From contig JBLNCI010000043.1 of assembly GCA_050260515.1 (NCBI GenBank), positions 79,880 to 143,879 of the forward strand: a stretch of 64,000 nt of DNA. Direction: 5' to 3'. How positions within the stretch are numbered: the stretch's first letter is position 1; each line of letters begins with the position of its first letter. Positions 29,030 through 53,834 of the stretch are shown here, in pieces. The notes beneath the pieces are model-generated. The model did not search any database. It worked only from the letters and a program-made list of their open reading frames with translations, and was not told the origin of the DNA. The stretch comes from Gemmatimonas sp. (lineage in GTDB: Bacteria > Pseudomonadota > Alphaproteobacteria > SMXQ01). The translations under genes and the position numbers were made by a program.

Positions 29030-29106
<77 letters not shown>

Positions 29107-29278: not shown

Positions 29279-29354
29279 TGGTGGGCGGTGACGGGATCGA
29301 ACCGCCGACATCTTGCGTGTAAAGCAAGCGCTCTACCGGCTGAGCTAACCGCCC
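29279..29354 (-). tRNA. tRNA-Val (anticodon TAC), CCA encoded
   Basis: Manual fold: acceptor GGGCGGT/ACCGCCC, anticodon stem-loop CTTGC-TTTACAC-GCAAG, T-loop GGTTCGATCC. Confidence 0.93.
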
Positions 29355-36260: not shown

Positions 36261-36345
36261 TGGTGCGGGCGGAGGGACTTGAACCCCCACGACTTGCGTC
36301 GCTGGAACCTAAATCCAGTGCGTCTACCAGTTCCGCCACGCCCGC
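36261..36345 (-). tRNA. tRNA-Leu (anticodon TAG), CCA encoded
   Basis: 85-nt class II tRNA: GCGGGCG acceptor, long variable arm, anticodon stem-loop CTGGA-TTTAGGT-TCCAG, T-loop GGTTCAAGTCC. Confidence 0.9.
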
Positions 36346-37129: not shown

Positions 37130-38905
37130 TTAAGCGTTGGTAACTTGCTTAAGCGCTCGTAAAACCCCGGGCACGAGGTCGGGTACATCCTCGGCGATCA
37201 GCCCGGGCCCGAACGAATCCGCGGCCGCCCCGTGAATCCAGGCGCCGGCGCACGCCGCGTCGAACGGATCCATTCCCTGGGCGATCAGACCGACAATGAT
37301 CCCCGCCAGCACGTCCCCGGCCCCCGCCGTGGCCAGCGTCGGCGGCGCATTGCCATTGATGCGGGCGCGACCATCGGGATGGGCAATCACGGTATCCGCC
37401 CCCTTGAGCAGCATCACGGCACCGGTGACCGAAGCCGCCGTCCGGGCGCGTTCGAGCTTTCCGGCGGTAAGGTCGATCGTGGCGGCGCGCCGGAACAGTC
37501 GGGCGAACTCGCCGTCATGGGGCGTCAGCACCGCGGCGGGCCCGCCGCGGCGATCGGCGGCGGCCTTGAGCGCCTCCACCAGGTCCTGCGGCCGATCGGC
37601 GAACACGGTCAGGGCGTCGGCGTCGAGCACACACACCCGCCCAGCCTCGAGCGCCAGCAGGACATGGGCCCGGGTCGCCGGGGTAGCGCCGTTCCCCGGA
37701 CCGAGCAGAACGGCATTCTTGCGCGGGTCGTCGAGAAGCGCCGCAAAGTCCGCAGGATGGGCGATCGGCATCGTGAGCACACCTGCCATCGCCGCGGCGT
37801 AGATCGGGAGCGCCTCGGGCGGAGAGGCAACCGTGACGAGGCCGGCGCCGACGCGCTGGCAGGCGCGGGCCGCAAGACGCCCGGCGCCGGTCATCGCGGC
37901 GCCGCCGACGACGACCGCATGCCCTCGGCTGTACTTATGTCCGCTGAGCCTCGGCCACGGGAAGGCACCGGCCCAGAGCTCCGGCGCGTTCTCGGCTGTC
38001 CGCGGGCGGATGGTGTCGAGCATGGACTCGGGAATCCCGATATCTGCGACACGGACGTCTCCGCACAATTCCCGTGCGGGAACAAGCAGGTGGGCGGCTT
38101 TCTTGCGAAAGAACGTCACTGTTGCCACGGCACTCGGTGCGCCCTCGCCCGTGCCGAGGACGCGGCCGGTATCTCCGTGGACTCCGGACGGAAGGTCGAC
38201 GGCGATCACCGGCAGCCGCCGCCGATTCAGCTCGCCGACGACAGCCAGGGCGACGCCTTCCAGTGGACGCGTGAGCCCGGCTCCGAACAGCGCATCGACG
38301 ACGACCGCGCCCTCGGCCCAATCCAGCACGCTCTCGGAGAGCGGCACGGCATCGGCGTCGTACATGGCCGCCGCGATCGCCGCATCGCCCTTCAACGTTG
38401 CGCGGTCGCCGAGGAGCGCGACGCGGACCCGGTGCCCCGCCTCGGAGAGATGACGCGCCGCGACGAAGCCGTCGCCGCCGTTGTTGCCGGGTCCGCACAG
38501 CACGACCACCGGTCGGCCCGGATACCGTCCGCGCACGTCATCCGCCACCGCGCGCCCCGCCGCTTCCATCAGCGCGATGCCGGGCGTGCCCGCCTCGATC
38601 GTCTGGCGATCGGCTGCGGCCATGTCCGCGACCGACAGGACCTCGAGCCCGCGGACAGGCGCGGCCGGCGTTTCCACCGGCGCGGCGAAGAAGTCCTCGG
38701 GCAGCAGCGGAACCGAGGACCGCTCCGCGGCGCGCAGCACGTCCTGCTGACGGCGCGCGGGGATGGTCCCGCGCTCGTGCCAGCCCTGCACGGTCGTCGC
38801 CGGAACGCCGAGCAGCCGCGCCAGTGCCCGAATACCGCCGAGGCGGGTGATCACGGCACGCGCGGGATTGTCGTCGCGCGATCGAATGCGAGGAGGCCGA
38901 CCCAT
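37130..38905 (-). CDS. nnr: Bifunctional NAD(P)H-hydrate repair enzyme Nnr (epimerase/ADP-dependent dehydratase) with ~90-aa N-terminal Cro/YdaS-like HTH extension
   Basis: Residues ~95-591 carry YjeF-N (VLCGPGNNGGDGFVAARHL) and YjeF-C carbohydrate-kinase (KYSRGHAVVVGGAAMTGAGRLAA, AGAGDVLAGII) motifs. The N-terminal stretch reads RLGGIRALARLLGVPATTVQGWHERGTIP. ATG 38903-38905 has a strong SD AAGGGGAG. Confidence 0.85.
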   Translation of the reverse strand: MGRPPRIRSRDDNPARAVITRLGGIRALARLLGVPATTVQGWHERGTIPARRQQDVLRAAERSSVPLLPEDFFAAPVETPAAPVRGLEVLSVADMAAADRQTIEAGTPGIALMEAAGRAVADDVRGRYPGRPVVVLCGPGNNGGDGFVAARHLSEAGHRVRVALLGDRATLKGDAAIAAAMYDADAVPLSESVLDWAEGAVVVDALFGAGLTRPLEGVALAVVGELNRRRLPVIAVDLPSGVHGDTGRVLGTGEGAPSAVATVTFFRKKAAHLLVPARELCGDVRVADIGIPESMLDTIRPRTAENAPELWAGAFPWPRLSGHKYSRGHAVVVGGAAMTGAGRLAARACQRVGAGLVTVASPPEALPIYAAAMAGVLTMPIAHPADFAALLDDPRKNAVLLGPGNGATPATRAHVLLALEAGRVCVLDADALTVFADRPQDLVEALKAAADRRGGPAAVLTPHDGEFARLFRRAATIDLTAGKLERARTAASVTGAVMLLKGADTVIAHPDGRARINGNAPPTLATAGAGDVLAGIIVGLIAQGMDPFDAACAGAWIHGAAADSFGPGLIAEDVPDLVPGVLRALKQVTNA

Positions 38906-41401: not shown

Positions 41402-41860
41402 TTATTTCCCGGGCGTCCGGTCCTGATCCGTCTTCACGAGCCGGTACGTGCGCCGATCCACCTCGAGCACACCGTCGGCGAATCGCAGGTTGATGCGCAC
41501 CGAGCCTTCATTGCGCTGCCACGGGATGAACTCCATCAACCGCTGCCCCGCCGCGGTGTACGGCTCGGCCAGCCCGATCGACTCGGCCTCGCTTCGGTTC
41601 GCCGCCCGGATGATGATCATGCCGGCGCCGACCCGGTTGCCGGTCTCGTCGACGAACGGCCCGGCGCCGAACAGCACGCCGCGCCGCTCGAGGTCCAACA
41701 GGTACTCGTGGTGGACGATCCGCATCTCCTCGGCCGGCCGAGGCATCGGCGGCGCGTCGGGATTGGGCCGCATCATCAGCACGTAGCACTGCTCGCGCGA
41801 GAGCGACGCCTGGATCGCGGCGGCGCGGGCTTTCGCGTCGTTGGCGGGATCGTCGGGCAT
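41402..41860 (-). CDS. YciI-like/Dabb-type alpha+beta barrel family protein (putative)
   Basis: Start at MPDDPANDAK (ATG 41858-41860, SD GGAGG). Roughly 100-aa core with RGVLFGAGPF...EAESIGLAEPY resembling the YciI fold. Upstream part of the track ORF is judged non-coding. Confidence 0.55.
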   Translation of the reverse strand: MPDDPANDAKARAAAIQASLSREQCYVLMMRPNPDAPPMPRPAEEMRIVHHEYLLDLERRGVLFGAGPFVDETGNRVGAGMIIIRAANRSEAESIGLAEPYTAAGQRLMEFIPWQRNEGSVRINLRFADGVLEVDRRTYRLVKTDQDRTPGK

Positions 41861-41910: not shown

Positions 41911-41940
41911 TTGTGGGTTGTAGGTGAAACTGACTATAAT
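41911..41940 (+). promoter_or_regulatory. Sigma-70-like promoter TTGTGG-N18-TATAAT upstream of the VOC/FAH/TctC gene set
   Basis: Perfect TATAAT hexamer (rare in this GC-rich DNA) 49 nt upstream of the VOC start. Confidence 0.45.
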
Positions 41941-41988
41941 CCGCCGCCCTGCCCGCTACGAGCGGGCACGGCAATCCAGGGGAGAGCA

Positions 41989-42825
41989 ATGACAGTACCC
42001 TCGGCGCTTCGGCCGGCGACGCTCCACCACGTGCAGATCACCTCCGAGCAGCCCAAGGTGCTGGCCGAGTTCTATGGGCACGTGCTCGACGGCGAGGTCA
42101 ACGAGATCGGCGGCGCGTTCCACGTCGCCGGCGCCGAGCGCCACCTCCTGATCGCTCCCGGACCCAAGAACAAGCTCGCGTTCGCCGGATTCGCGCTGCC
42201 CGACGAGGCGCGCCTCGCCAAATACCGCGCCGAGATCGCCGCCAGGGGAATCAACAGCCGCCCGTCACCGACGCCGCTGTTCGCCGACGGCGCGTTCGCC
42301 GTCGATCTGCCGGATGGGGAGCAGTTTGCGTTCGGCGTGCCCCGCAGCAAGTCGGCGAAGCCCGACGCGCGCCCGGGGCGGCTACAGCATGTCGTCGTCG
42401 CCTCGGACCAGCTTCCGGCGATGGCCGATTTCGTGACCAAGCTCGGCTTCCTCGTTTCCGACCGCGTGCTCGACGGCGATCGCGATACCACCGCGATCTT
42501 CATGCGCTCGGACCATGAGCACCACAGCTTCGCGACCTTCCGCGCGCGCGGCCGGCAGTTCGACCACTATGCGTTCGAGGTGAACTCCTGGAACGACATC
42601 CGCGACTGGGCGGATCACCTCGCCAGCCTGCGCATTCCCGTGGGCTGGGGACCCGGGCGACACGGGCCCGGCAACAACCTGTTCTTCATGCTCAACGATC
42701 CCGACGGCAATGCGCTCGAGTTCTCGGCCGAGATCGAGCACTTCACCGAGGATCAACCGACCCGCGAATGGCCCCACGAGCAGCGCACGCTCAACCTGTG
42801 GGGCAGCGCGTGGATGCGGTCGTAG
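41989..42825 (+). CDS. Two-domain VOC-family protein, extradiol (catechol 2,3-) dioxygenase-like
   Basis: Start MTVPSAL (ATG 41989, SD GGGGAG). Tandem glyoxalase/VOC modules. C-terminal module has candidate His/His/Glu metal ligands (RLQHVVVAS, SDHEHHSFATF, GNALEFSAEI). Confidence 0.75.
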   Translation: MTVPSALRPATLHHVQITSEQPKVLAEFYGHVLDGEVNEIGGAFHVAGAERHLLIAPGPKNKLAFAGFALPDEARLAKYRAEIAARGINSRPSPTPLFADGAFAVDLPDGEQFAFGVPRSKSAKPDARPGRLQHVVVASDQLPAMADFVTKLGFLVSDRVLDGDRDTTAIFMRSDHEHHSFATFRARGRQFDHYAFEVNSWNDIRDWADHLASLRIPVGWGPGRHGPGNNLFFMLNDPDGNALEFSAEIEHFTEDQPTREWPHEQRTLNLWGSAWMRS

Positions 42826-42865
42826 ACATCCGTTTCTTTCGTCCAACCAAGCAAGAAGAGATCCG

Positions 42866-43711
42866 ATGAAGCTTCTCAGTTTCCGTCACAACGGCAAGGA
42901 CACCTACGGCGTCGTCTCCGGCAACGGCGTGATCGACCTCGGCAAACGGCTCGGCGCGAACTATCCCGACCTCAAGTCGCTGATCGCCATGGGCGGTCTC
43001 GACGAGGCGAAGAAGGCCGCCACCGGCACCGCCGATGCGTCGCTCGACGCGATCGAGTTCCTGCCGGTGATCCCGAACCCGGGCAAGATCGTCTGCGTGG
43101 GACTCAACTACAAGGCGCACCGCGAGGAGACCGGCCGCGCGCCGACGGACAACCCGGCGCTGTTCATCCGCTGGGCCGACAGCCAGACCGGCCACAAGCA
43201 GCCGCTGGTGAAGCCGAAGGCGTCGAACATGCTCGACTACGAGGGCGAGCTCGCCGTCATCATCGGCAAAAAGGCGCGCCACGTGAAGGAGGCCGACGCC
43301 TTCGGCATTATCGCCGGCTACTCCTGCTACAACGACGGCAGCGTGCGCGACTGGCAGAACCACACGCCGCAGTGGAGTCCGGGCAAGAACTTCCCGCGCA
43401 CCGGCGGCTTCGGGCCGTGGATGGTCACCGCCGACGAGATCCCCGACGTCAACCAGATGACGCTGACCACGCGGCTCAACGGTCAGGTCGTCCAGCAGAC
43501 CGGCATCGACCTGATGCTGTTCCCGATTCCGGTGGTGATCGCCTACGTGAGCACGTTCACCGAGCTCCATCCGGGCGACGTGATCTCGACCGGAACGCCG
43601 GGCGGCGTCGGCTTCAAGCGCAACCCGCCGCTGTTCATGAAGGCGGGCGACAAGGTCGAGGTCGACATCTCGAAGATCGGCGTCCTCGAGAACACCATCG
43701 TCGCGGAATGA
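42866..43711 (+). CDS. Fumarylacetoacetate hydrolase (FAH) family protein
   Basis: 281 aa; LDYEGELAVIIGKKARHV...GDVISTGTPGGVG is the FAH/HpcE-type fold signature. Confidence 0.85.
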   Translation: MKLLSFRHNGKDTYGVVSGNGVIDLGKRLGANYPDLKSLIAMGGLDEAKKAATGTADASLDAIEFLPVIPNPGKIVCVGLNYKAHREETGRAPTDNPALFIRWADSQTGHKQPLVKPKASNMLDYEGELAVIIGKKARHVKEADAFGIIAGYSCYNDGSVRDWQNHTPQWSPGKNFPRTGGFGPWMVTADEIPDVNQMTLTTRLNGQVVQQTGIDLMLFPIPVVIAYVSTFTELHPGDVISTGTPGGVGFKRNPPLFMKAGDKVEVDISKIGVLENTIVAE

Positions 43712-43765
43712 CGACCGCGCAGTGACGACCGGAACACCGGCGTCATCAGAGACAGGGAGAGCAAG

Positions 43766-44842
43766 ATGAAAGTGACGTACGTTCTTCGTGCCGGCGGAGT
43801 CGCCGCGCTCGTCGCCCTCGCCGCCTCCACCGCGGCGGCGCAGGGCGACCCGGCGGCGGCGTTCAAGGGCAAGACCGTGACCGTCTATGTCGGGCTGTCG
43901 CCGGGCGGCGGCTACGACACCAATGCCCGCGTGCTCGCGAAGCACATCGGGCGCTACATCCCCGGTGAGCCGAACGTCATCGTCAAGAACATGCCGGGCG
44001 GCGGCGGACTCGTGATGACCAGCTACGTCGCCAACGTCGCGCCGAAGGACGGGCTGCACATCGGCGCGCCGCAGCGCGGCATTCCGTTCGAGCCGCTCAC
44101 CGGGGGCGACGAGTCCCACGCCAAGTACGACCCGCAGAAGCTCAACTGGCTCGGCAGCATGAACGCCGACACGAGCGTCGCGGTGGCGACGAAGGCGTCC
44201 GGCATCAAGTCGTGGCGCGACCTCAAGAGCAAGGAGCTGATCGTCGCCGGCACCGGCGTCGGCACCGAGAGCGTCGTGGTCCCGTACGTGCTGCGCAACG
44301 TCCTCGGCCTCAAGTTCAAGGTCATCGCGGGCTATCCCGGCGGCAGCGAGATGAACCTCGCGATGCAGCGCGGCGAGACCGGCGGCCGCGGCACGTTCTC
44401 GTGGACGAGTCTGAAGCCTCAGAAAGCCGCGTGGATCGATTCGGGCGAGCTCGTCGTGCTGTTCCAGATGGGCCTCAAGAAGCACCCGGACCTTCCCGAC
44501 GTGCCGCTCGTCACCGAGCTCGCCGAGAACGACGAGCAGACGAAGCTGCTGGAGCTCGAGTTCACCGGGTTCCAGCTTGGCCGCCCCTACTTCCTCCCCG
44601 AAGGCGTGCCGGCCGACCGCGTGACGCTGCTCCGGCGGTCGTTCGACAAGGCGATGGAGGACAAGGACTTGATCGCCGAGGCGACGAAGCTCGACCTCGA
44701 GGTCAACCCGACCAGCGGCGAGGAGATGCAGGCGATCATCAAGCGGGTGTACGCCACGCCGAAGAACCTCGTCGCCAAGCTCGCGGAAGCGAGCAAGCTT
44801 CAGCCGGACCTCCAGGTCCTGAAGGGCGCGAAGTCGGACTAG
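43766..44842 (+). CDS. Tripartite tricarboxylate transporter substrate-binding protein (TctC/Bug family), orphan
   Basis: Signal peptide; SPGGGYDTNARVLAK..NMPGGGG pattern typical of TctC/Bug periplasmic binding proteins. No tctA/tctB nearby. Confidence 0.65.
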   Translation: MKVTYVLRAGGVAALVALAASTAAAQGDPAAAFKGKTVTVYVGLSPGGGYDTNARVLAKHIGRYIPGEPNVIVKNMPGGGGLVMTSYVANVAPKDGLHIGAPQRGIPFEPLTGGDESHAKYDPQKLNWLGSMNADTSVAVATKASGIKSWRDLKSKELIVAGTGVGTESVVVPYVLRNVLGLKFKVIAGYPGGSEMNLAMQRGETGGRGTFSWTSLKPQKAAWIDSGELVVLFQMGLKKHPDLPDVPLVTELAENDEQTKLLELEFTGFQLGRPYFLPEGVPADRVTLLRRSFDKAMEDKDLIAEATKLDLEVNPTSGEEMQAIIKRVYATPKNLVAKLAEASKLQPDLQVLKGAKSD

Positions 44843-44935
44843 GACATACAGGGGCGATCCGCCGCATAAGGCGGACGCCGCGCGAGAGACGCCGGCCGCG
44901 AACACACGCGGCCAGCGGAGCCACGGGAGGCTCGG

Positions 44936-45997
44936 ATGGACGGATGGTTGCAGCGCGCGGTGCGCCCTCGTGTCGGTGTTGTCGCCTGCGCGGCTGTCAT
45001 CGCTGCAGCGGCCGCGACGGTGTGGGACGCCCCGGCGCAGGCCGACGACTACTTCAAGGGCAAGACGATCGTCATCAATTCCGGCGGCGAGACCGGCGGC
45101 TACGACGTCTACGCCCGCCTGCTGATGAACCACTACCCGCGCCACATCCCCGGGAATCCGGGCATGATGGTGAAGCTGATGCCGGGCGCCGGCACGCTGC
45201 GCGCCGCCAACTACATGTACGAGGTCGCGCCCAAGGACGGCAGCCAGATCGGCACCGTCGGCGGCGGCACCGCGACCGCCGAGCTGTTCAAATCGAAGGG
45301 CGTACGCTTCGATCCGCGGCGGTACGTATGGATCGGCAGCATGAACAGCGAGGTCGGGCTCGTGCTGGCGTGGAAGTCGGTGCCGATCAAGTCGATCGAC
45401 GACGTGTTCCATCGCGACTTCCTCGTTGGCGGCGGCGGCCCGACCTCGGGCAATGTCGTGTTCCCGAACGTGATGAACCGCGTGCTCGGCACCCGGTTCA
45501 AGATCATCTCCGGCTACAAGAGCACCGGCGACATCGCGCTCGCGATCGAGCGCGGCGAGATCGAGGGCACGGCGAGCTACCACTACTCCAGCATCATCAC
45601 CCGCAACCCCGACTGGCTGATCAACGACCGCGTCACCGTGCTGCTGCAGGATTCGCTGCGGCCGCACAGCAAGTATCCCGATGTCCCCGTGGTGGTCGAT
45701 CTCGCCAGGAACGACGAGCAGCGCGCCATCCTCGAGCTGGTGTTCTCGCGCCAGGAGATGGGGCGGCCGTTCATGCTGCCGCCGGGTACGCCGGCCGAGA
45801 TCGGCAACGTCCTGCGCCGCGCGTTCGACGAGACGATGAGAGACCCCGCGCTGCTGGCCGAGGCGGCCAAGACCCAGCTCGACCTCAACAACCCGATGAC
45901 CGGCGAGGAAATCCACGCCCTCATCGACCGGCTGTACACCGTCTCGCCGGAAATCGTCGCCAAGGCGGCCGAAGCGACCGGCGAGAACGCGGAATAG
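44936..45997 (+). CDS. Tripartite tricarboxylate transporter substrate-binding protein (TctC/Bug family), paralog
   Basis: Signal peptide; SGGETGGYDVYARLL..LMPGAGT; aligns along its full length with the upstream paralog. Confidence 0.65.
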   Translation: MDGWLQRAVRPRVGVVACAAVIAAAAATVWDAPAQADDYFKGKTIVINSGGETGGYDVYARLLMNHYPRHIPGNPGMMVKLMPGAGTLRAANYMYEVAPKDGSQIGTVGGGTATAELFKSKGVRFDPRRYVWIGSMNSEVGLVLAWKSVPIKSIDDVFHRDFLVGGGGPTSGNVVFPNVMNRVLGTRFKIISGYKSTGDIALAIERGEIEGTASYHYSSIITRNPDWLINDRVTVLLQDSLRPHSKYPDVPVVVDLARNDEQRAILELVFSRQEMGRPFMLPPGTPAEIGNVLRRAFDETMRDPALLAEAAKTQLDLNNPMTGEEIHALIDRLYTVSPEIVAKAAEATGENAE

Positions 45998-46006
45998 CTG
46001 TCGCCG

Positions 46007-46834
46007 CTACGCGCGCTTGGTGACGACGACCTCGAGGTACTCGCTCGGCAGCACGAGCGTGCCATCGCCGGCGATGTTGAACGCGTCGATCAGCGCGTGG
46101 ATGTCCCGCTCCAGCGCCGCCCGCGCATCCTCGTCGAGCGCGGCGAACGCCTTCACCATCGGGCCGTAGTACTGGCGGAAGACCGCGACCCAATGATTGG
46201 CCGAGCGATAGCGGAAGACGAAGTTCCGCCGCGCGGCGGTGATGACCGCCGAAGGGCCGAACAGCGCGTCGAGGTGCTCCCGCCTGCCCCACAGCGCCGG
46301 CGACTTCACGCCCGGAGCGGGCGGGATGTACTTGGCGATCGTCGCGAACAACCGGCCGATGAAGCTTTCCGGCGTCCAGTTGGCGAGGCCGATCTTGCCG
46401 CCCGGCCGGCACACGCGCAGCAATTCGCGCGCGGCCTGCTCCTGGTTCGGGGTGAACATCACCCCGAACGTCGACAGCACGACGTCGAAGCTCGCATCGC
46501 CGAACGGGAGCGCCTCGGCGTCGGCCTGCTGGAAGACGACCGGCAGCGCCTCGGCTTGCGCTCGGACACGCCCCCGATCCAGAAGCGACTCGACGTAGTC
46601 TGTCGAGACGACGTCGGCGAAGCGCCGCGCCGCCGCCAGCGTCGCGTTGCCGTTGCCGGCGGCGACGTCGAGGACGCGCTGGGTGCTGCGGAGATCGACC
46701 GCCTCGCACAACGTCTCGCCGACGATCTGGAGAGTCGTGCCGATGACGGCGTAGTCGCCGGAGGCCCATGCGGCCTGCTGGCGGCTCTTGATGGTGGAGA
46801 GATCGATGGTCGCGGTGGCTTGGGCCTGAGTCAT
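46007..46834 (-). CDS. Class I SAM-dependent methyltransferase
   Basis: Start MTQAQATAT (ATG 46832-46834). Motif I VLDVAAGNGNATL and post-I acidic residue; 275 aa. The 405-aa track ORF is over-extended. Confidence 0.8.
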   Translation of the reverse strand: MTQAQATATIDLSTIKSRQQAAWASGDYAVIGTTLQIVGETLCEAVDLRSTQRVLDVAAGNGNATLAAARRFADVVSTDYVESLLDRGRVRAQAEALPVVFQQADAEALPFGDASFDVVLSTFGVMFTPNQEQAARELLRVCRPGGKIGLANWTPESFIGRLFATIAKYIPPAPGVKSPALWGRREHLDALFGPSAVITAARRNFVFRYRSANHWVAVFRQYYGPMVKAFAALDEDARAALERDIHALIDAFNIAGDGTLVLPSEYLEVVVTKRA

Positions 46835-46875
46835 GGCGCTATTCCTTCTGAAGAACGGATCAGTGCGGGGCCGCG

Positions 46876-47049
46876 CTATTGCGGCCGGTCCTTGAACCAC
46901 CCCTCGTAGGGGATGCTTTGTGTGTTCTCGCTCGCCGGGTCCGGGAGGCCGGCCTCGGCCGGGCCGTCCGGCGCGCATCGCGCGACGGCGAGCGTGCCGA
47001 GCAGCGCGACGGCGATCGCGATGGCGGAATTGGTCCACTGCATCTTCAT
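46876..47049 (-). CDS. Small secreted peptide, 57 aa (MKMQWTNSAIAIAVALLGTLAVARC-APDGPAEAGLPDPASENTQSIPYEGWFKDRPQ); not in ORF track
   Basis: ATG 47047-47049 with SD AGGAG 6 nt upstream; signal peptide. C-terminal W-F-K-D resembles the FKD motif of the 40873/41224 lipoproteins. Confidence 0.45.
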   Translation of the reverse strand: MKMQWTNSAIAIAVALLGTLAVARCAPDGPAEAGLPDPASENTQSIPYEGWFKDRPQ

Positions 47050-47072
47050 GTACATCTCCTATTCCACGTGCA

Positions 47073-47495
47073 TCATTCGGCCACCGTTTCGCCGGAGCCG
47101 CCGAACGCGGCGGGGAAATCCCTGAGCTTCGGCAGCCCGTCGCGCATCGGCAGCACCGTCTCGGCGTAGTTGATGTGCAGCCCCGGCACGAACGCGAGCG
47201 TCGGCAGCGTCGCCGCGTAGACATCGACCACTCCCACGGTCGGGTGGTTGGTCATCAGGTGACCTCCGCAGCGGCGGCAGTACTGACGCTCGCTGAACGC
47301 AGTCTTGTGGTACGTCGCGACATGCTCGGCGCCCGCCGTGACCTTCACCGCCTCCGGCTTCCACAGCGTGAAGGCGTTGACCGGACTGGCCGACCACGAC
47401 CGGCACGAGGCGCAATGGCAGTACCCCATCGCCTCCGGCGATCCGCTGACCTCGATGCGGACCGCGCCGCAAAAGCATGTTCCGTGATGAGTCAC
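47073..47495 (-). CDS. GFA (glutathione-dependent formaldehyde-activating / CENP-V-like) family protein
   Basis: GTG start with SD GAGGAGG; Zn-cysteine pattern CFCGAV...CHCASC...CRRCG typical of GFA domain. Confidence 0.8.
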   Translation of the reverse strand: MTHHGTCFCGAVRIEVSGSPEAMGYCHCASCRSWSASPVNAFTLWKPEAVKVTAGAEHVATYHKTAFSERQYCRRCGGHLMTNHPTVGVVDVYAATLPTLAFVPGLHINYAETVLPMRDGLPKLRDFPAAFGGSGETVAE

Positions 47496-47566
47496 GTCGA
47501 CCTCCTCGAGTTCGCCACACGCGGACCGCGTACGCGGCTGATGAGGACAATCCTAGAGGCGAGCGC

Positions 47567-47675
47567 CGGACGGCCGCTTGATGCGGCGTCCGTGTTGCTT
47601 GATATCGCGTCGCTATTTCGCGTCTGTGTTGATGCAGCGTCCGCAAACCATGTTCGCGCGTCCGCGACGCTTGAC
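47567..47675. promoter_or_regulatory. Four iterated operator-like repeats GCTTGAY-N3-5-GCGTC in the GFA/AraC divergent intergenic region
   Basis: Copies at 47567, 47588, 47617 and 47660; the first two are 21 bp apart; a fit for AraC/XylS-type direct-repeat sites. Confidence 0.35.
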
Positions 47676-47734
47676 TCACGCTCGGCCGGCAGCCCTGATA
47701 TCCCGCTCCACGCGGGCAAAGGGGGGAACGCCAG

Positions 47735-48703
47735 ATGGATGCTCTGTCCGACGTTCTCAGAGCGATACGGCTGACCGGCGCGACCTTCTTCGAGGTCGCG
47801 GGCTCAGCGCCGTGGGTCGCGGAGCAGCCTGCGCCCGAGAGACTGCTGCCGAAAATCTTCCCCGGCTCCGGACATCTGATCTCGTACCACGTGGTCACCG
47901 AGGGCCGCTGCTATGCCAGCATCGTCGGCGGCGAGCCGATTCCCCTCGAGACCGGCGACGTGGTCGTGTTTACGCGCGGCGATGCCCACGTGATGGCCAG
48001 CACCGCCGGGATGCGGACCAAGCCCTATTCGCCCAGCAGGATCGACGCGCGCACGCGCATGCAGCTCCCCTTCGCGGTGAGCTACGGGCAGGGGCCAGTC
48101 GCCACCCGGCTGGTGTGCGGCTTCCTCGCGTGTGACGCGCAACCGTTCAATCCGTTGCTCGAACATCTGCCACCCGTCATCACCGCCGGCGATCGCGGCA
48201 GCAACCGCGGCTGGCTGCGCCAGTTCATCCAGCTCGCGACCGAGGAGTCCACCGACAAGCGCGCCGGAGGCGAAAGCGTGCTCGCGCGCCTGAGCGAGCT
48301 GATGTTCATCGAGGTGATCCGACGCTACCTCGATGCCCTGCCGCCGGAGCAGGCGGGCTGGCTCGCCGGCGTGCGCGACCCGTTCGTGGGAAAGGCGTTG
48401 TCGCTGCTCCACGGCGATCCGTCGCGCGAGTGGACGATCGAGGCGCTCGCCAAGGGCGTTGGCTTGTCGCGTTCGGTGTTGGCCGAGCGCTTCACCGATT
48501 TGCTCGGCATGCCGCCGATGCACTATCTCGCGAAGTGGCGGATGCAGATCGCGTCCGGACTGCTGTCGCGGGGCGACGCGAACGTCGCCGCCGTTGCCGC
48601 GGAAATCGGCTATGGCTCCGAGGCCGCGTTCAGCCGCGCCTTCAAGAAGATGGTCGGCGTCGCGCCGTCGGAGTGGCGTCGCAGCCGCGTCGGAGTCGAC
48701 TAG
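47735..48703 (+). CDS. AraC-family transcriptional regulator with N-terminal cupin sensor domain
   Basis: C-terminal double HTH (GVGLSRSVLAERF...AEIGYGSEAAFSRAFKKMVGVAPSEWR); N-terminal AraC_binding_2/cupin region; SD GGGGGGAA. Confidence 0.88.
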   Translation: MDALSDVLRAIRLTGATFFEVAGSAPWVAEQPAPERLLPKIFPGSGHLISYHVVTEGRCYASIVGGEPIPLETGDVVVFTRGDAHVMASTAGMRTKPYSPSRIDARTRMQLPFAVSYGQGPVATRLVCGFLACDAQPFNPLLEHLPPVITAGDRGSNRGWLRQFIQLATEESTDKRAGGESVLARLSELMFIEVIRRYLDALPPEQAGWLAGVRDPFVGKALSLLHGDPSREWTIEALAKGVGLSRSVLAERFTDLLGMPPMHYLAKWRMQIASGLLSRGDANVAAVAAEIGYGSEAAFSRAFKKMVGVAPSEWRRSRVGVD

Positions 48704-49671
48704 AGCCCGAGCAGCCGCGCCGCATTGCCGCCGAGGATCGCCGCCTGGGTCGCGGCATCGAGTCCCGGCGTCCGTCGGATCAGGCCCACCGGATCGTTGT
48801 CGCCCATGTCGAACGGGCTGTCGCTCCCCATCAGGATCCTGTCGCTGCCGACGAGGCCGACGAGATAGGCCACCTGCTCCGGCCGGAACAGCACGGTGTC
48901 GAGCCAGATCTGCTTCAGCACCTCGCCCGGCGAGCGCGCCAGATTCACCCGGCACTCCGGCCGGGTGCGCCACGCCTGCTCGAAGCGTCCGACGTAGAAC
49001 GGGAAGTAGCCGCCGCCGTGCGCGGCCACGAGCTTGAGGGCGGGATAGCGTTCGAACACCCCGCCGAAGATCATCTGCGCGAGGGCAAGAGTCGTCTCCA
49101 GCGGATTGCCGACGGCGTTCTCCATGTAATAGGCCTCCAGCCGCTGCGGCTGGGTGAAGCCCTGCGGATGCAGGAACACCACGGCACCGAGCGACTCGGC
49201 CTTGGCCCAGAACGGATCGAAGCGGCGGTCGCCGAGCTCGAGCCCACCGACGTTGGTGCCGATGCGCACCCCCCTGTGACCGAGCGCCATCAGACGCTCG
49301 AGCTCCGCGACCGAGGCGGCGACGTGCTGGAGCGGCACGTTTCCCGTCGCGACGATGCGGTCGCGATGGTCGCGGGCGATCCGCGCCACCTCGTCGTTGG
49401 TGATGCGGGCGACGGCGAGCCCGGTCTCCTCGTCGGCCTTGAAGAATCCGCGCGGGGGCGACGGCGTCAGCACGGCGAGGTCGACTCCCATCGCGTCCAT
49501 GCTGGCGAGCCGCGCGTCGATCTCGACGAGGATCGGCGCCTTCGACGGATCGCTGAGCCCGCTCGACCCCGGCTTCGGCGGCTTCGCGGGCGCGCTCCGC
49601 CCCTCGGCCATGCGCTTGCGCGCCGGACCGACGTTGATGTGGGCGTGGAAGTCGATGACCCGCGTCGCCAT
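48700..49671 (-). CDS. Amidohydrolase-2 family protein (ACMSD/LigW-type metal-dependent hydrolase/decarboxylase)
   Basis: N-terminal VIDFHAHI His-x-His metal motif and 323-aa TIM-barrel length; immediately downstream of an FAH gene. Confidence 0.8.
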   Translation of the reverse strand: MATRVIDFHAHINVGPARKRMAEGRSAPAKPPKPGSSGLSDPSKAPILVEIDARLASMDAMGVDLAVLTPSPPRGFFKADEETGLAVARITNDEVARIARDHRDRIVATGNVPLQHVAASVAELERLMALGHRGVRIGTNVGGLELGDRRFDPFWAKAESLGAVVFLHPQGFTQPQRLEAYYMENAVGNPLETTLALAQMIFGGVFERYPALKLVAAHGGGYFPFYVGRFEQAWRTRPECRVNLARSPGEVLKQIWLDTVLFRPEQVAYLVGLVGSDRILMGSDSPFDMGDNDPVGLIRRTPGLDAATQAAILGGNAARLLGL

Positions 49672-49674
49672 GCC

Positions 49675-50601
49675 CTACTCGCCCTGGACGACCGGGTTCT
49701 TGATCGTGCCGATGCCCTCGACTTCGATCGTCACCGTGTCGCCGGGCTTCAGGAAGATGCCACGGGGGCGGCCGACGCCCGACGGCGTGCCGGTCGAGAT
49801 GACGTCGCCCGGCCGCAGCGTCAGCCGCTCGCTCAGGTACGAAATCTGCTCGGGGATGTCGAAGTGCATGAACTTTGTCGATGAGTCCTGCATGAGCTGG
49901 TCGTTGACCCAGAGCTTGATGGCGAGATTGTACGGGTCCTTGACCTGGCTTTTGGGCGTGATCCACGGACCCATCGGCGCCGAGGTGTCGAAGCACTTGT
50001 GGGCGAACCAGTCGACGCGGAAGTTCCAGTCCGTGCGCGAGCCGAGGTCGCGCAGGCTGAGATCGTTCATGATGGTGTAGCCGGCGACGTAGTCCATCGC
50101 CTCCGACTGCTTCACGTTGCGCGCCGGCTTGCCGATGACGACGCCGATCTCGGCCTCCCAGTCGACCTGCTTCGAGATCTTCGGCAGCTTGATCGCGTCG
50201 CCGGTGGCGATGATCGAGTGCGCGGTGGTCTTCGGGAAGAAGTACGGGCGAGTCACCTTCTTGTCCGGCGGCTCGCGGCCCGACATCTCCTTCATGTGGT
50301 CGGTGTAGTTCGCGGCGGCGCAGAAGATCCCGGCGGGATAGAGGATCGGCGCCAGCAGCCGCGTCGACGACAGCGCGCGCACGGCAGCCTGGAGGTGCGT
50401 CGCCACGCCCGACGGCGTGCCGAGCTCGTCGGCCAGCGCCTTCAGCTTCGGCTCGAGGCTCTCCCACTGCTGCAGCACCGCAAGCGTGCTGTCGACCTTG
50501 AGGCCGGCCTTGGCGAGGTCGAGCACCTGATCGCCGACGCGGATGCCCGGGCACGGGCGGTTGTTCTCGTCGGCGAAGGTCAGCAGGTAGAAATCGGTCA
50601 C
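49675..50601 (-). CDS. Fumarylacetoacetate hydrolase (FAH) family protein, second copy
   Basis: GTG start (cac 50599-50601) with SD GGGGGAA. C-terminal GDVISTGTPSGVG...GDTVTIEVEGIGTIKNPV. The 578-aa track ORF is over-extended. Confidence 0.8.
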   Translation of the reverse strand: MTDFYLLTFADENNRPCPGIRVGDQVLDLAKAGLKVDSTLAVLQQWESLEPKLKALADELGTPSGVATHLQAAVRALSSTRLLAPILYPAGIFCAAANYTDHMKEMSGREPPDKKVTRPYFFPKTTAHSIIATGDAIKLPKISKQVDWEAEIGVVIGKPARNVKQSEAMDYVAGYTIMNDLSLRDLGSRTDWNFRVDWFAHKCFDTSAPMGPWITPKSQVKDPYNLAIKLWVNDQLMQDSSTKFMHFDIPEQISYLSERLTLRPGDVISTGTPSGVGRPRGIFLKPGDTVTIEVEGIGTIKNPVVQGE

Positions 50602-50804: not shown

Positions 50805-51308
50805 CTACCTCTTCGCCTGCTCGCGGACGTAGTAGATCAGGTCCAGCGGCGGCGGCGCGACCGCCGTCTGGCTGAGCTGGTCGTGCACCTGCCCGCGGTG
50901 GTGGGTCTGGTGATTGAACATGTGGGCGAGCACGAGCTGCATCGGCGTTTCCGCGCGGTCGCCGGCGATGGTCGTGTAGTAGAGCGTGCAAGCGAGCTCG
51001 TCCGGCCCGAGGTCCTCCATCAGCCGGATGATGCGCACGTCTTCGGCGGCCCGCGCCTGCGAGAGCGCCGGCAGGTCGTCGTAGAGGATCTCGTCGTAGC
51101 CCTTGGCCTCGACCGTCAGCCCCTCGATACGGGCGAGCCAAGCGCGGTCTCCGACCATGATGTGGTTGAGCGTGCCCTTGATCGAGCCGAAGAACGCCGC
51201 GCGGGGCTTCCCGTACTCGCCGGGCGGCAGCTTGGCGCACGCGGCGTAGAGCCGTTCGTTGGCCCAGCGGTTGTAACGGGCGAGCATCTGGAAATAGGCG
51301 GCGTCCAT
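50805..51308 (-). CDS. DinB-family (DinB_2/DUF664) protein
   Basis: Start at MDAAYFQMLARYNRWANERLYAA; C-terminal HMFNHQTHHRGQVHDQL matches the DinB four-helix-bundle metal motif. Confidence 0.75.
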   Translation of the reverse strand: MDAAYFQMLARYNRWANERLYAACAKLPPGEYGKPRAAFFGSIKGTLNHIMVGDRAWLARIEGLTVEAKGYDEILYDDLPALSQARAAEDVRIIRLMEDLGPDELACTLYYTTIAGDRAETPMQLVLAHMFNHQTHHRGQVHDQLSQTAVAPPPLDLIYYVREQAKR

Positions 51309-51398
51309 CTCGGCCTCTGCGCTTAGAGGCGCGAAGGGTACACGCGCGGCATCGCGAGGCAACGGTCAACGCCGCGACCGAGCGTTGCCTCCGACGCA

Positions 51399-53757: not shown

Positions 53758-53834
53758 TGGGGCGAGTGACCGGGATCGAACCGGCGACATCCAGAACCAC
53801 AATCTGGCGCTCTACCAACTGAGCTACACCCGCC
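53758..53834 (-). tRNA. tRNA-His (anticodon GTG) with encoded G-1 and CCA
   Basis: Manual fold: G-1 + GCGGGTG acceptor, anticodon stem-loop CCAGA-TTGTGGT-TCTGG, T-loop GGTTCGATCC, discriminator C. Confidence 0.93.

Follow-up and report, generated by a model that had tools for sequence, protein, structure and literature searches.

The interval 41911-50601 of the window (the whole stretch of DNA analysed, 64,000 nucleotides) is a real though fairly ordinary aromatic-degradation gene island of an uncultured soil alphaproteobacterium. Its core would be a lower pathway for a 1,2,4-trihydroxylated aromatic ring of the BbdF/BbdG type, a reading we hold with slightly better than even confidence, with substrate and products predicted from sequence. 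The probable substrate is a trihydroxybenzoate, for instance 2,3,5-trihydroxybenzoate, or a decarboxylated hydroxyquinol/trihydroxytoluene analogue. All nine genes named in a preliminary description of this DNA were recovered with the Pfam domains claimed for them, and comparative genomics divides them into three units, the VOC operon, the FAH2-AH2 pair and an insertion:

41989-45997, + strand: unit 1, conserved, predicted operon for a two-domain extradiol dioxygenase, a hydrolase of the FAH family and a pair of divergent TctC-family binding proteins
41935-41940, +: TATAAT -10 element, candidate VOC-operon promoter, read from sequence and conserved in relatives
41946-41972, +: 12-nt inverted repeat (GCCCTGCCCGCT/AGCGGGCACGGC) immediately following the -10
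41989-42825, +: VOC, two-domain type I extradiol dioxygenase, BbdF-like, 278 aa; Pfam Glyoxalase 80.5 bits; longest ORF 41911-42825
42866-43711, +: FAH1, FAH-family hydrolase, BbdG/DntG-like, 281 aa; Pfam FAA_hydrolase 219.8 bits
43766-44842, +: PBP1, periplasmic solute-binding protein of a divergent TctC family, 358 aa; Pfam TctC 37.7 bits, gathering score 27
44936-45997, +: PBP2, second divergent TctC-family binding protein, 353 aa; Pfam TctC 18.1 bits, below gathering
46007-48703, both strands: unit 3, 2.7-kb insertion with methyltransferase, small ORF, GFA and Cupin_6-AraC
46007-46834, -: SAM methyltransferase; Methyltransf_11 77.9 bits
47073-47495, -: GFA; 72.2 bits
47735-48703, +: Cupin_6 + AraC HTH regulator; 163 and 81 bits
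50601-48700, -: unit 2, convergent, translationally coupled pair of a second FAH and an ACMSD-like amidohydrolase-2
48700-49671, -: AH2, ACMSD-like amidohydrolase-2, 323 aa; Pfam Amidohydro_2 129 bits
49675-50601, -: FAH2, second FAH-family enzyme, HpaG-C-domain-like, 308 aa; Pfam 249.8 bits
50673-50702, -: candidate promoter only, about 70 nt 5′ of FAH2; weak match of sigma-70 type, TCGAAA-18-TATTAT

Every enzyme scores below the NCBIfam equivalog cut-offs, and no hydroxylase was found in the 64-kb window. The remaining window genes are housekeeping genes (tsf, rpsB, dnaE, nuo, lon, clpXP, tig, yjeF, glnBA, gyrB-like, DEAD helicase).

The predicted dioxygenase operon and its candidate promoter

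The longest ORF for the VOC gene does begin at 41911, as originally described, but TATAAT lies inside that ORF and the start should therefore move to 41989. The ATG at 41989 is almost certainly the real start, because a Shine-Dalgarno sequence (GGGGAGAG) precedes it and the resulting 278 aa is the length of all close homologues. The perfect TATAAT said to head this gene run is indeed there, 48 nt upstream of the ATG. It is not statistically notable: the exact hexamer occurs once in 64 kb with 0.85 expected by chance, and at least one copy appears in 55 of 100 shuffles of the window. A promoter scan made no call at this position because the -35 is weak (TTGTGG at 41911-41916, with an 18-nt spacer). 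A GAyTATAATCCG block is invariant 5′ of the orthologous VOC gene in four relatives, with diverging flanks, so the promoter claim rests on conservation, not on statistics. The four + strand genes would form one operon transcribed from this element. The inverted repeat that follows could be an operator or a 5′-terminal mRNA hairpin. Its significance is doubtful, as the RNA fold of -21.8 kcal/mol has a z of only -1.6 and the repeat is conserved only in part among relatives.

The VOC protein has a type I extradiol fold (AF2 model, pLDDT 87), in which the His134/His193/Glu244 triad and H179, the His200 equivalent, are invariant. It would use Fe(II) or Mn(II) to cleave the ring beside its vicinal hydroxyls, giving a 2,4,6-trioxo acid. 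Homoprotocatechuate 2,3-dioxygenases (HPCDs) are its top structural neighbours (Foldseek TM 0.78), which fits a classical catechol-type meta-cleavage route such as that for homoprotocatechuate or 2,3-dihydroxyphenylpropionate, in which the VOC protein would be HpaD- or MhpB-like and the FAH proteins would be HpaG-type decarboxylase/isomerases or hydratases. We consider this quite unlikely. The HpaD and catechol-2,3-dioxygenase equivalog cut-offs are missed widely (about 80 versus 320 bits), and the catechol-binding Tyr257 of HPCD is replaced by Met in the window protein, as it is by Ile in BbdF.

FAH1, whose real start is ATG 42866, would then hydrolyse a beta-diketone C-C bond to release pyruvate and a second small acid, which would be oxaloacetate if the ring-fission product is a dicarboxylate. 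The best PDB match of FAH1 is 6j57 (187 bits). Both FAH1 and FAH2 also match HpaG domains and PDB 1gtt, as a catechol-type route would have it, but at 170-184 bits they fall well short of the HpaG equivalog cut-off of 276. The closest characterised FAH relatives found, BbdG and DntG, act on fission products of trihydroxy rings.

Neighbourhoods and transport in relatives

Conservation was counted across 80 species-representative loci of VOC homologues. In 23 of them, spread over Alpha- and Gammaproteobacteria and Acidobacteriota, the VOC gene is followed within 400 bp by a FAH1-type gene. The proposal of an aromatic ring-cleavage catabolic locus is supported, and the tests named beforehand did not refute it: the metal triad is present and the VOC-FAH pair is co-conserved. 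The methyltransferase, GFA and AraC genes fall outside the conserved cluster. Other partners include an MhpA-like flavin hydroxylase within 5 kb (24/80 loci; NCBIfam NF004831 at 671 bits, cut-off 546), an IclR regulator (16/80), a pyrogallol-transhydroxylase-like Mo enzyme (5/80; PDB 4v4c pyrogallol hydroxytransferase, E=3e-300) and a lignostilbene-dioxygenase-like gene with an aldehyde dehydrogenase (5/80). None of the partner genes occurs in 45 of the 80 loci. Within the window's clade the VOC-FAH1 pair is kept, while hydroxylase type, binding-protein number and inserted genes vary.

In sister lineages, either the MhpA-like flavoprotein or the Mo enzyme, both absent from the window, may convert a precursor of the resorcinol type, such as 3,5-dihydroxybenzoate, to the trihydroxy ring. 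That the neighbouring hydroxylase passes a model named for MhpA is also what catechol-type cleavage would lead one to see. In two loci (L062 and L069) the dioxygenase is paired not with FAH but with an alpha/beta hydrolase similar to those acting on meta-cleavage products; substrates therefore differ across the dioxygenase family. Against a catechol-type route, semialdehyde dehydrogenase, hydratase, aldolase and acetaldehyde dehydrogenase genes are absent from the window and from most related loci. The amino-aromatic substrate considered in the preliminary description has no pointer in its favour: the locus lacks an HAO/AmnAB-type dioxygenase, a deaminase and a dehydrogenase.

Uptake of an aromatic carboxylate remains plausible. 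PBP1 begins with a signal-like segment, and its best PDB matches are TctC/Bug proteins at no more than 26 bits. PBP2 is 41% identical to PBP1, and both fall in one subfamily alignment, which matches canonical TctC in a profile-profile comparison (hhalign, 99.3% probability, E=1.8e-20, 281 columns). There is no TctAB anywhere in the 64-kb window, and the two proteins would deliver their ligand to a tripartite tricarboxylate transporter (TTT) encoded elsewhere. TTT or TRAP systems adjoin the VOC-FAH pair in other genomes; in L069 and L062, TctA (527 bits) and canonical TctC (223 bits) stand directly 5′ of the dioxygenase gene, and pBAM2 carries a TRAP system.

The FAH2-AH2 module and the insertion

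We regard FAH2-AH2 as a possible lineage-specific accessory module, most likely composed of a metal-dependent decarboxylase and a second beta-diketone hydrolase or decarboxylase. A gap of 3 nt indicates translational coupling. The sigma-70-like match upstream is not significant: chance alone would give 0.8 sites, and the scan gave one. FAH2, whose homologues are also 308 aa long, has HpaG 1gtt as its best PDB match (201 bits) and is 32% identical to FAH1, 32% to BbdG and 35% to DntG. AH2 is a probable metal-dependent decarboxylase, to judge from its best PDB match, human ACMSD (165 bits), with equivalents of H174/H224/R235/D291 kept and D7, H9, H11, H168, H218, R229 and D284 invariant in its family.

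Both modules could together form a complete orcinol/resorcylate-type pathway, the biochemistry of which was reportedly described by Chapman and Ribbons in 1976. AH2 would decarboxylate an imported resorcylic acid (orsellinate, beta- or gamma-resorcylate) or 2,3,5-trihydroxybenzoate, a hydroxylase encoded elsewhere would yield a 1,2,4-triol for the VOC protein to open, and FAH1 and FAH2 would carry out two successive beta-diketone hydrolyses (trioxoheptanoate, then acetylpyruvate). The intact catalytic set of AH2, within the ACMSD/LigW/resorcylate-decarboxylase superfamily, fits such a scheme, as do the coupling of AH2 to FAH2, their constant company with VOC-FAH1 in the window lineage and the resorcinol-type hydroxylases (Mo enzyme) adjoining sister loci. 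So do two plasmids: pBAM2, with a substrate that retains the carboxyl group, carries a single FAH and lacks AH2, and a Novosphingobium humi plasmid has an AH2 homologue (46%) with a two-domain VOC and a FAH. We nevertheless judge this pathway unlikely. ACMSD, an enzyme with a ring-opened substrate, is the nearest match of AH2, and aromatic-acid decarboxylases are more distant (46-92 bits); the more distant homologues of AH2 and FAH2 are solitary; and the window has no hydroxylase. Conservation of the FAH2-AH2 pair and its adjacency to the core are confined to the window's lineage, where the whole region is syntenic, so its membership in a shared pathway is unproven.

That synteny also raises the idea that the modules are functionally unrelated neighbours, with FAH2-AH2 serving another route, such as a sugar-acid route (lactonase-type amidohydrolase plus 2,4-diketo-3-deoxy-acid hydrolase) or one that decarboxylates an ACMS-like intermediate. 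In three loci (L004, L009 and L093) the pair has its own upstream binding-protein gene and its own strand, yjeF-DAO and glnBA flanks are common to all loci with both modules, and NCBIfam and source annotations name 2,4-didehydro-3-deoxy-L-rhamnonate or -fuconate hydrolases (169-188 bits). Those scores are far under the 500-bit cut-off, however, sugar dehydrogenase and dehydratase genes are absent, AH2 aligns with ACMSD-type decarboxylases and not lactonases, and the modules remain adjacent despite repeated gene turnover between and around them. We find this very unlikely.

The methyltransferase, GFA and AraC genes had been counted as cluster members, which does not hold. The insertion is seen only in the window, L001 and L009; in L004-L007, L010 and L089 the enzyme modules abut directly. 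Its absence from most syntenic relatives places it outside the pathway, and the block would be an unrelated insertion.

Comparison with known systems

The trihydroxy-aromatic reading draws on plasmid pBAM2 of the herbicide-residue degrader Aminobacter sp. MSH1, where BbdF and BbdG are homologues of the window VOC and FAH1. According to Raes et al. 2019, BbdF is said to convert a trihydroxylated benzoate to 2,4,6-trioxoheptanedioate, which BbdG reportedly likely turns into Krebs-cycle intermediates. The window VOC is 40% identical to BbdF (DCS14_RS00090) and FAH1 47% to BbdG, both over full length; in an NJ tree the window VOC clade is a branch apart from the BbdF-containing group. The modest identity to BbdF and this separate branch weigh against the trihydroxy-aromatic reading, as do the lack of a hydroxylase and of TctAB in the window, the replaced Tyr257, the two loci with an alpha/beta hydrolase and the 45 loci that have no partner gene. 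The identities of bbdF and bbdG were confirmed in PMC8235418 Table S5 and in the annotation of pBAM2. DntG of the dinitrotoluene pathway, an isomerase/hydrolase acting after the 2,4,5-trihydroxytoluene oxygenase (PMC10602510), shares 40% full-length identity with FAH1. A further point against the reading is that DntD is no close relative of the window VOC (28% identity across one domain). The statement that the locus matches no known layout is therefore half true: its VOC-FAH core corresponds to bbdF-bbdG of pBAM2, and FAH1 resembles DntG.

Gene content of the island and the block between its modules

The window has a GC content of about 68%, so reading frames were picked by third-position GC and then checked with Pfam and NCBIfam. 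All nine genes named in the preliminary description were found, with the expected Pfam domains.

Genes of the island
41989-42825, plus strand: two-domain VOC protein, here called the dioxygenase (Glyoxalase, 80.5 bits)
42866-43711, plus strand: FAH1, FAH family (PF01557, 219.8 bits)
43766-44842, plus strand: PBP1, TctC-like binding protein (Pfam TctC 37.7 bits, cut-off 27)
44936-45997, plus strand: PBP2, TctC-like binding protein (Pfam TctC 18.1 bits, under the gathering score)
46007-46834, minus strand: class I SAM methyltransferase
inside 46007-48703: GFA protein
inside 46007-48703, divergently transcribed: Cupin_6 + AraC-HTH regulator
49671-48700, minus strand: AH2, amidohydrolase-2 (129 bits)
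50601-49675, minus strand: FAH2, FAH family (249.8 bits)

The start of the dioxygenase gene was corrected to ATG 41989, a codon that GGGGAGAG precedes; the product is then 278 aa long, matching every close homologue in length. The FAH1 start was corrected to 42866, and the gap between the two genes is 40 nt. FAH2 lies 3 nt from the amidohydrolase gene, which converges on the AraC gene with a 4-nt overlap. None of the enzymes reached an NCBIfam equivalog cut-off, and neither TctAB nor an aromatic hydroxylase was found anywhere in the 64-kb window. The other genes of the window are housekeeping genes (tsf, rpsB, dnaE, nuo, lon, clpXP, tig, yjeF), together with a DAO-type oxidoreductase, glnB/glnA, a GyrB-like protein and a DEAD helicase. 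Rfam matched four tRNA genes, all on the minus strand (29033-29106, 29282-29354, 36264-36345 and 53761-53833), and nothing else; the tRNA at 53761 sits between an MCP gene and glnB, immediately outside the island.

Divergent from the dioxygenase operon is a YCII-family gene (41402-41860, minus strand), which holds the same position in the relatives' loci L007, L010, L011, L013 and L089. TftG, the dechlorinase of the hydroxyquinol pathway, belongs to this family. Immediately upstream of FAH2 is a DinB-family gene (50805-51362, minus strand), with a homologue (67% identity) at the same place in locus L004; another DinB-family homologue (45%) lies directly upstream of the dioxygenase gene in the unrelated locus L060. 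The YjeF ORF (37130-38905, minus strand; NAD(P)HX epimerase/dehydratase) has about 100 additional N-terminal residues with weak Cro/YdaS-like HTH matches under Pfam cut-offs, and is called at 598-606 aa in relatives, compared with 496 aa in L007. Only one database protein is 100% identical to FAH2 (P0241), and it carries the name 'MAG: Gemmatimonas sp.'. The syntenic relatives are all listed as Alphaproteobacteria or Rhodospirillaceae; mis-binning or a wrong taxonomic assignment may explain the Gemmatimonas name.

Close relatives share the same chromosomal setting (lon-clpX-clpP-tig ... yjeF-DAO ... glnBA), within which the island itself is variable.

Arrangements of the island in relatives (percentages are identity)
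L002/L003 (88%): dioxygenase, FAH1, three binding proteins
L004-L006 (78%): dioxygenase-FAH1-PBP-PBP, directly convergent with amidohydrolase-FAH2-PBP; methyltransferase, GFA and AraC absent
L007, L010, L089 (~60%): IclR-dioxygenase-FAH1-flavin monooxygenase-PBP(s), convergent with amidohydrolase-FAH2
L012, L013, L093: dioxygenase-FAH1, two-subunit molybdenum enzyme, PBPs, amidohydrolase
L009 (89%) and the short contig L001: the only loci sharing the methyltransferase-GFA-AraC block with the window

A 2.7-kb block (46007-48703), placed precisely where the two convergent catabolic modules meet, contains the methyltransferase, a 57-aa ORF, the GFA gene and the Cupin_6-AraC regulator, which is transcribed divergently. 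Because only L009 and L001 share it with the window, comparison of the loci identifies it as a 2.7-kb insertion between two conserved modules. The preliminary description had placed the methyltransferase, GFA and AraC proteins in the catabolic cluster, which this narrow distribution contradicts. The AraC protein was also rejected as regulator of the cluster, as it is not co-conserved and the sister loci carry IclR or no regulator. It scored 109 bits against the RclR equivalog (cut-off 400).

A perfect TATAAT promoter had been proposed to head the dioxygenase operon. The hexamer at 41935-41940 is the sole exact copy in 64 kb, which is not significant by itself with 0.85 copies expected by chance, and a consensus promoter scan did not call the site because its -35 is weak. 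In its favor, four relatives (78-89% protein identity) keep a GAyTATAATCCG block unchanged 5′ of the orthologous gene, amid intergenic sequence that has diverged. For this reason we regard TATAAT as probably the -10 element. Immediately 3′ of it, a 12-nt inverted repeat that could form a 5′-UTR hairpin has a fold energy that is ordinary for its composition (z = -1.6).

The dioxygenase, its FAH partner and the binding proteins

Searching the PDB with the dioxygenase sequence returned the structural-genomics VOC protein 3b59 first, followed by homoprotocatechuate 2,3-dioxygenases (HPCD). Residues H134, H193 and E244 align with the HPCD ligands H155, H214 and E267, and H179 with the catalytic H200. 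HPCD Tyr257, which binds a catecholic hydroxyl, is replaced by Met at position 234. The triad, H179 and Met234 are invariant across 16 homologues (50-78% identity). An AlphaFold2 model (pLDDT 87, pTM 0.87) contains two tandem beta-alpha-beta-beta-beta module domains, and its best Foldseek matches are type I extradiol dioxygenases: HPCD (1f1u/1q0o, TM 0.78), AphC and BphC. The preliminary description had allowed that the VOC protein might lack a metal triad. Given the aligned and invariant ligands and the structural matches of the model, the His/His/Glu triad is present within a modelled two-domain extradiol fold. A glyoxalase or bleomycin-resistance protein is excluded by the triad, the fold and the catabolic neighborhood. 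The models for catechol 2,3-dioxygenase and HpaD (TIGR03211 and TIGR02295) scored 79.7 and 78.6 bits, over the C-terminal half only and against cut-offs of 320 and 321.

Relatives of the dioxygenase number more than 3,400 in the protein collection and come mainly from alphaproteobacterial MAGs. A tblastn search of plasmids gave a match on pBAM2 of Aminobacter sp. MSH1 (NZ_CP028966.1). The annotation there lists IclR, TRAP DctPQM, alpha/beta hydrolase, Rieske oxygenase and GST, and then a regulator, VOC, FAH, PDR/VanB reductase, GST and glutathione reductase. This region is bbdR1B1B2B3CDE plus bbdR2FGHIJ (PMC8235418), in which bbdF is DCS14_RS00090 (VOC) and bbdG is DCS14_RS00095 (FAH) (PMC8235418 Table S5). 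In an NJ tree, the clade of the window dioxygenase forms its own branch beside the group with BbdF and is not nested in it, although FAH and hydroxylase neighbors are common to both. The BbdF group also takes in nearly all FAH- or hydroxylase-carrying loci, and a third group consists of 45 'orphan' homologues. Besides BbdG, DntG is the second known enzyme of this type: an isomerase/hydrolase acting after 2,4,5-trihydroxytoluene oxygenase in dinitrotoluene degradation (PMC10602510). It was also compared, using the sequence in the supplement of that paper.

Pairwise comparisons with characterized ring-cleavage proteins
dioxygenase and BbdF: 40% identity, full length, E=1e-76
FAH1 and BbdG: 47% identity, full length, E=2e-96
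FAH2 and BbdG: 32% identity, 284 aligned positions
FAH1 and DntG: 40% identity, full length
FAH2 and DntG: 35% identity, 233 residues
dioxygenase and DntD: 28% identity, C-terminal domain only

With 28% identity over a single domain, DntD was rejected as a near relative of the window dioxygenase. The FAH proteins carry the motifs YEGELAV...YNDGSVRD (FAH1) and WEAEIGV...MNDLSLRD (FAH2), as read from sequence, which we take to be the metal-binding E-x-E...D after FAHD1/HpaG structures. The two FAH proteins scored 170 and 184 bits against the HpaG-C equivalog, for which the cut-off is 276. A sugar-acid route was also considered, and here the FAH proteins scored 188 and 169 bits against the DhyDRhmHlse (2,4-didehydro-3-deoxy-L-rhamnonate hydrolase) equivalog. 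These scores are far under the cut-off of 500 and the dehydratase and dehydrogenase of such a route are absent, so it is disfavored.

PBP1 and PBP2 are 41% identical to each other, and both have signal-like N-termini. Their subfamily scores poorly against Pfam TctC and the Bug/TctC proteins of the PDB. A profile of the subfamily nevertheless aligned with canonical TctC over 281 columns (hhalign probability 99.3%, E=1.8e-20), so that at the profile level it is homologous to canonical TctC over the full length. Like the orphan Bug/TctC (TTT) proteins, the pair has signal-like N-termini and no adjacent TctAB, an absence that is typical of Bug proteins. They are divergent from that family, at 37.7 and 18.1 bits compared with 223 for a canonical TctC, and longer (about 355 aa compared with about 320 aa). 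The same subfamily occurs near the dioxygenase in the unrelated Hyphomicrobiales loci L062 and L069.

Neighborhoods in relatives and the second module

A wider scan took one genome per species and gave 80 loci, with counts from neighbor clustering and tblastn. A FAH1-type gene lies at most 400 bp downstream of the dioxygenase gene in 23 of the 80, and an MhpA-like hydroxylase within 5 kb in 24. An IclR regulator is nearby in 16, a molybdenum enzyme in 5 and a stilbene-oxygenase-like gene in 5; the remaining 45 loci have none of these neighbors. Among the FAH1-type loci are those of Sphingobium, Sphingomonas, Novosphingobium resinovorum, Nitrospirillum, Mesorhizobium and Rhodoplanes, as well as of gammaproteobacterial MAGs and one acidobacterial MAG.

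Two kinds of hydroxylase accompany the dioxygenase. One scores 671 bits against NCBIfam NF004831 (cut-off 546), the model named for 3-(3-hydroxyphenyl)propionate hydroxylase. The other is the molybdenum enzyme, whose alpha subunit matches the large subunit of pyrogallol hydroxytransferase (PDB 4v4c) with E=3e-300. It has an alpha subunit of about 1000 aa and an FeS beta subunit of about 280 aa, and adjoins the VOC dioxygenase in soil and marine Alphaproteobacteria (L012:3051-6930, L013:5385-9273, L093:13828-16754; also L050, L053, L073 and L052). A TPP-dependent enzyme is additionally present in L012 and L013. Placed beside an O2-dependent dioxygenase, the molybdenum enzyme looks like part of a hybrid of anaerobic-type hydroxylation and aerobic ring cleavage.

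In sphingomonads and Nitrospirillum, a lignostilbene-dioxygenase-like oxygenase (566 bits) and aldehyde dehydrogenases lie next to the dioxygenase-FAH-MhpA-like triad. They flank it in L042:7146-13342, L058:6831-13391, L080:6821-13423, L066:86-8430 and L055:4283-11718. With this arrangement, stilbenes such as resveratrol could be degraded by way of 3,5-dihydroxybenzoate. Cultured organisms with the triad include Novosphingobium resinovorum, Sphingomonas sp. BE138, Nitrospirillum viridazoti and Mesorhizobium sp. ASY16-5R. Together, both hydroxylase kinds and the stilbene link point to resorcinol-type ring substrates that would be made into 1,2,4-triols ahead of cleavage.

Directly upstream of the dioxygenase, L069 and L062 carry TctA (527 bits) and a canonical TctC (223 bits). 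The order is TctA, canonical TctC, dioxygenase, IclR, MhpA-like hydroxylase and alpha/beta hydrolase (L062:1001-6339, L069:7309-14091). This arrangement, in which a FAH gene is lacking, suggests that some members of the dioxygenase family act in a catechol-type meta-cleavage setting.

As for the second module, every locus of the window's lineage that is long enough carries the FAH2-amidohydrolase pair, and in many cases a separate PBP gene lies upstream of the pair. FAH2 is nearest to the HpaG C-terminal domain (201 bits) and is 32% identical to FAH1. AH2 matched no NCBIfam model. It is nearest to ACMSD (2-amino-3-carboxymuconate-6-semialdehyde decarboxylase; 165 bits), followed by LigW and IDCase (about 92) and the resorcylate and dihydroxybenzoate decarboxylases (46-62). 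Aligned to 4ign/4igm, it keeps equivalents of ACMSD H174, H224, R235 and D291 plus the N-terminal HxH, and H9, H11, H168, H218, R229 and D284 are invariant in its family. AH2 thus has the metal ligands, catalytic His and substrate-binding Arg235 equivalent in common with ACMSD, but in the insertion segment that bears Arg47 (human R47) its residues 12-50 are unalignable. Neither a 3-hydroxyanthranilate nor an aminophenol dioxygenase was found in the window or its relatives, and no downstream dehydrogenase is nearby. With its partner genes absent, an amino-aromatic ACMSD route is disfavored, and the preliminary description's suggestion of such a substrate goes with it.

An amidohydrolase homologue (46%) on a Novosphingobium humi plasmid lies between a Rieske oxygenase and a different two-domain VOC plus FAH. 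This context weakly supports a role for the amidohydrolase in aromatic ring-cleavage routes. The order there (L095, NZ_CP103869.1, 6214-13021) is LysR, VanA-like Rieske oxygenase, amidohydrolase homologue, second LysR, VOC and FAH, a segment with no annotated features in the PLSDB gene table. The FAH2/amidohydrolase pair may also be unrelated to the dioxygenase pathway; distant homologues of AH2 or FAH2 are solitary, without conserved partners. If it does belong to the pathway, we infer that the pair may supply decarboxylation and a second beta-diketone hydrolysis. These would be the steps of the classical orcinol route.

Pathway interpretation and comparison with known systems

The best-supported reading of the locus is a lower pathway of the BbdF/BbdG type. 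BbdF reportedly converts a trihydroxylated benzoate to 2,4,6-trioxoheptanedioate (Raes et al. 2019), with BbdG likely turning this product into Krebs-cycle intermediates. In the window, the TctC-like receptors would take up an aromatic carboxylate, the dioxygenase would open a 1,2,4-trihydroxylated ring by extradiol cleavage, and the FAH protein would hydrolyze the resulting beta-triketo acid to pyruvate and a second small acid. Compared with its sister lineages, the window variant is missing the hydroxylase and an IclR regulator; it would either import an already trihydroxylated acid or use genes elsewhere in the genome. A catechol-type meta-cleavage like Hpa or Mhp would fit the dioxygenase fold, but it is disfavored by the absence of dehydrogenase, hydratase and aldolase genes, by equivalog scores under the cut-offs and by the replacement of Tyr257. 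The genes described in the preliminary account are thus confirmed, and its ring-cleavage interpretation is supported in part: the metal triad and extradiol fold agree with it, and the insertion genes and the amino-aromatic substrate drop out.

A wider proposal, to which we give a low probability, is that the island and its sister loci together encode a widely distributed, as yet unassigned aerobic route for resorcinol-type phenolics. An ACMSD-like decarboxylase would act first, followed by an exchangeable hydroxylase (flavin-dependent or of the O2-independent molybdenum transhydroxylase type), the Tyr-less extradiol dioxygenase and two FAH-type beta-diketone hydrolases in succession. The candidate source is plant and algal phenolics, with 3,5-dihydroxybenzoate from stilbenes, resorcylates or orsellinate as substrates. 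If true, this would supply genes for a classical orcinol-type route and make the pathway a hybrid of anaerobic-style hydroxylation and aerobic ring cleavage.

If the BbdF/BbdG-type assignment holds, BbdF and BbdG would be members of a large natural enzyme family rather than a curiosity of one herbicide-residue degrader. The family, with its >3,400 homologues, is spread over soil, freshwater and marine Proteobacteria and Acidobacteriota. It would handle trihydroxylated rings that originate from plant phenolics of the resorcinol type, stilbene fragments among them. The assignment would also point to the source from which the bbd lower pathway was recruited, and would offer candidate ligands for a divergent orphan TctC binding-protein subfamily. 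For the window itself the gain is modest: about 6 kb of an uncultured alphaproteobacterium are better annotated, and the methyltransferase, GFA and AraC genes are dropped from the supposed pathway. The more interesting leads are in the relatives, namely the coupling of an O2-dependent dioxygenase with an O2-independent hydroxylase of the transhydroxylase type, and a candidate stilbene/3,5-dihydroxybenzoate pathway in sphingomonads.

Several characterized systems resemble parts of this locus. With HpaD (HPCD) and HpaG, the window proteins share the folds, the His/His/Glu triad and the catalytic His200 equivalent, as well as the FAH metal motif and a strong similarity to the HpaG C-terminal domain. 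They differ in that the window FAHs are single-domain, Tyr257 is replaced, the equivalog thresholds are missed and there are no HpaE, HpaH or HpaI genes. Alpha and beta subunits of the molybdenum-enzyme family of the Pelobacter pyrogallol-phloroglucinol transhydroxylase lie beside the dioxygenase in L012, L013, L093, L050, L053 and L073. Such genes are absent from the window, and in relatives they are tied to O2-dependent ring cleavage, not to the anaerobic hydroxyhydroquinone route. The anaerobes Azoarcus and Thauera have hydroxylases for resorcinol and 3,5-dihydroxybenzoate.

DntB-DntD-DntG of the Burkholderia 2,4-dinitrotoluene pathway follows the same logic, with a flavin monooxygenase, extradiol cleavage of a 1,2,4-trihydroxy ring and a FAH-family isomerase/hydrolase leading to pyruvate (PMC10602510). 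DntD belongs to another VOC subfamily and keeps the Tyr, unlike the window dioxygenase, and the window has neither the monooxygenase nor the methylmalonate-semialdehyde dehydrogenase.

In the 2,6-dichlorobenzoate pathway of pBAM2, the trihydroxy ring is made by a Rieske monooxygenase, glutathione-dependent dehalogenases and an alpha/beta-hydrolase dehalogenase, none of which is in the window; the window has the ACMSD-like/FAH2 pair instead. The transporter is TRAP on pBAM2 and two orphan TctC-like proteins in the window, and the window dioxygenase falls in a clade separate from BbdF in the NJ tree. Both BbdF and the window dioxygenase are without the Tyr257 equivalent (Ile in BbdF). The pBAM2 cluster also carries a binding-protein-dependent carboxylate transporter and an IclR regulator, as the window's sister loci do, and in bbdF-bbdG, as in the window, a two-domain VOC dioxygenase is followed at once by a FAH-family protein.
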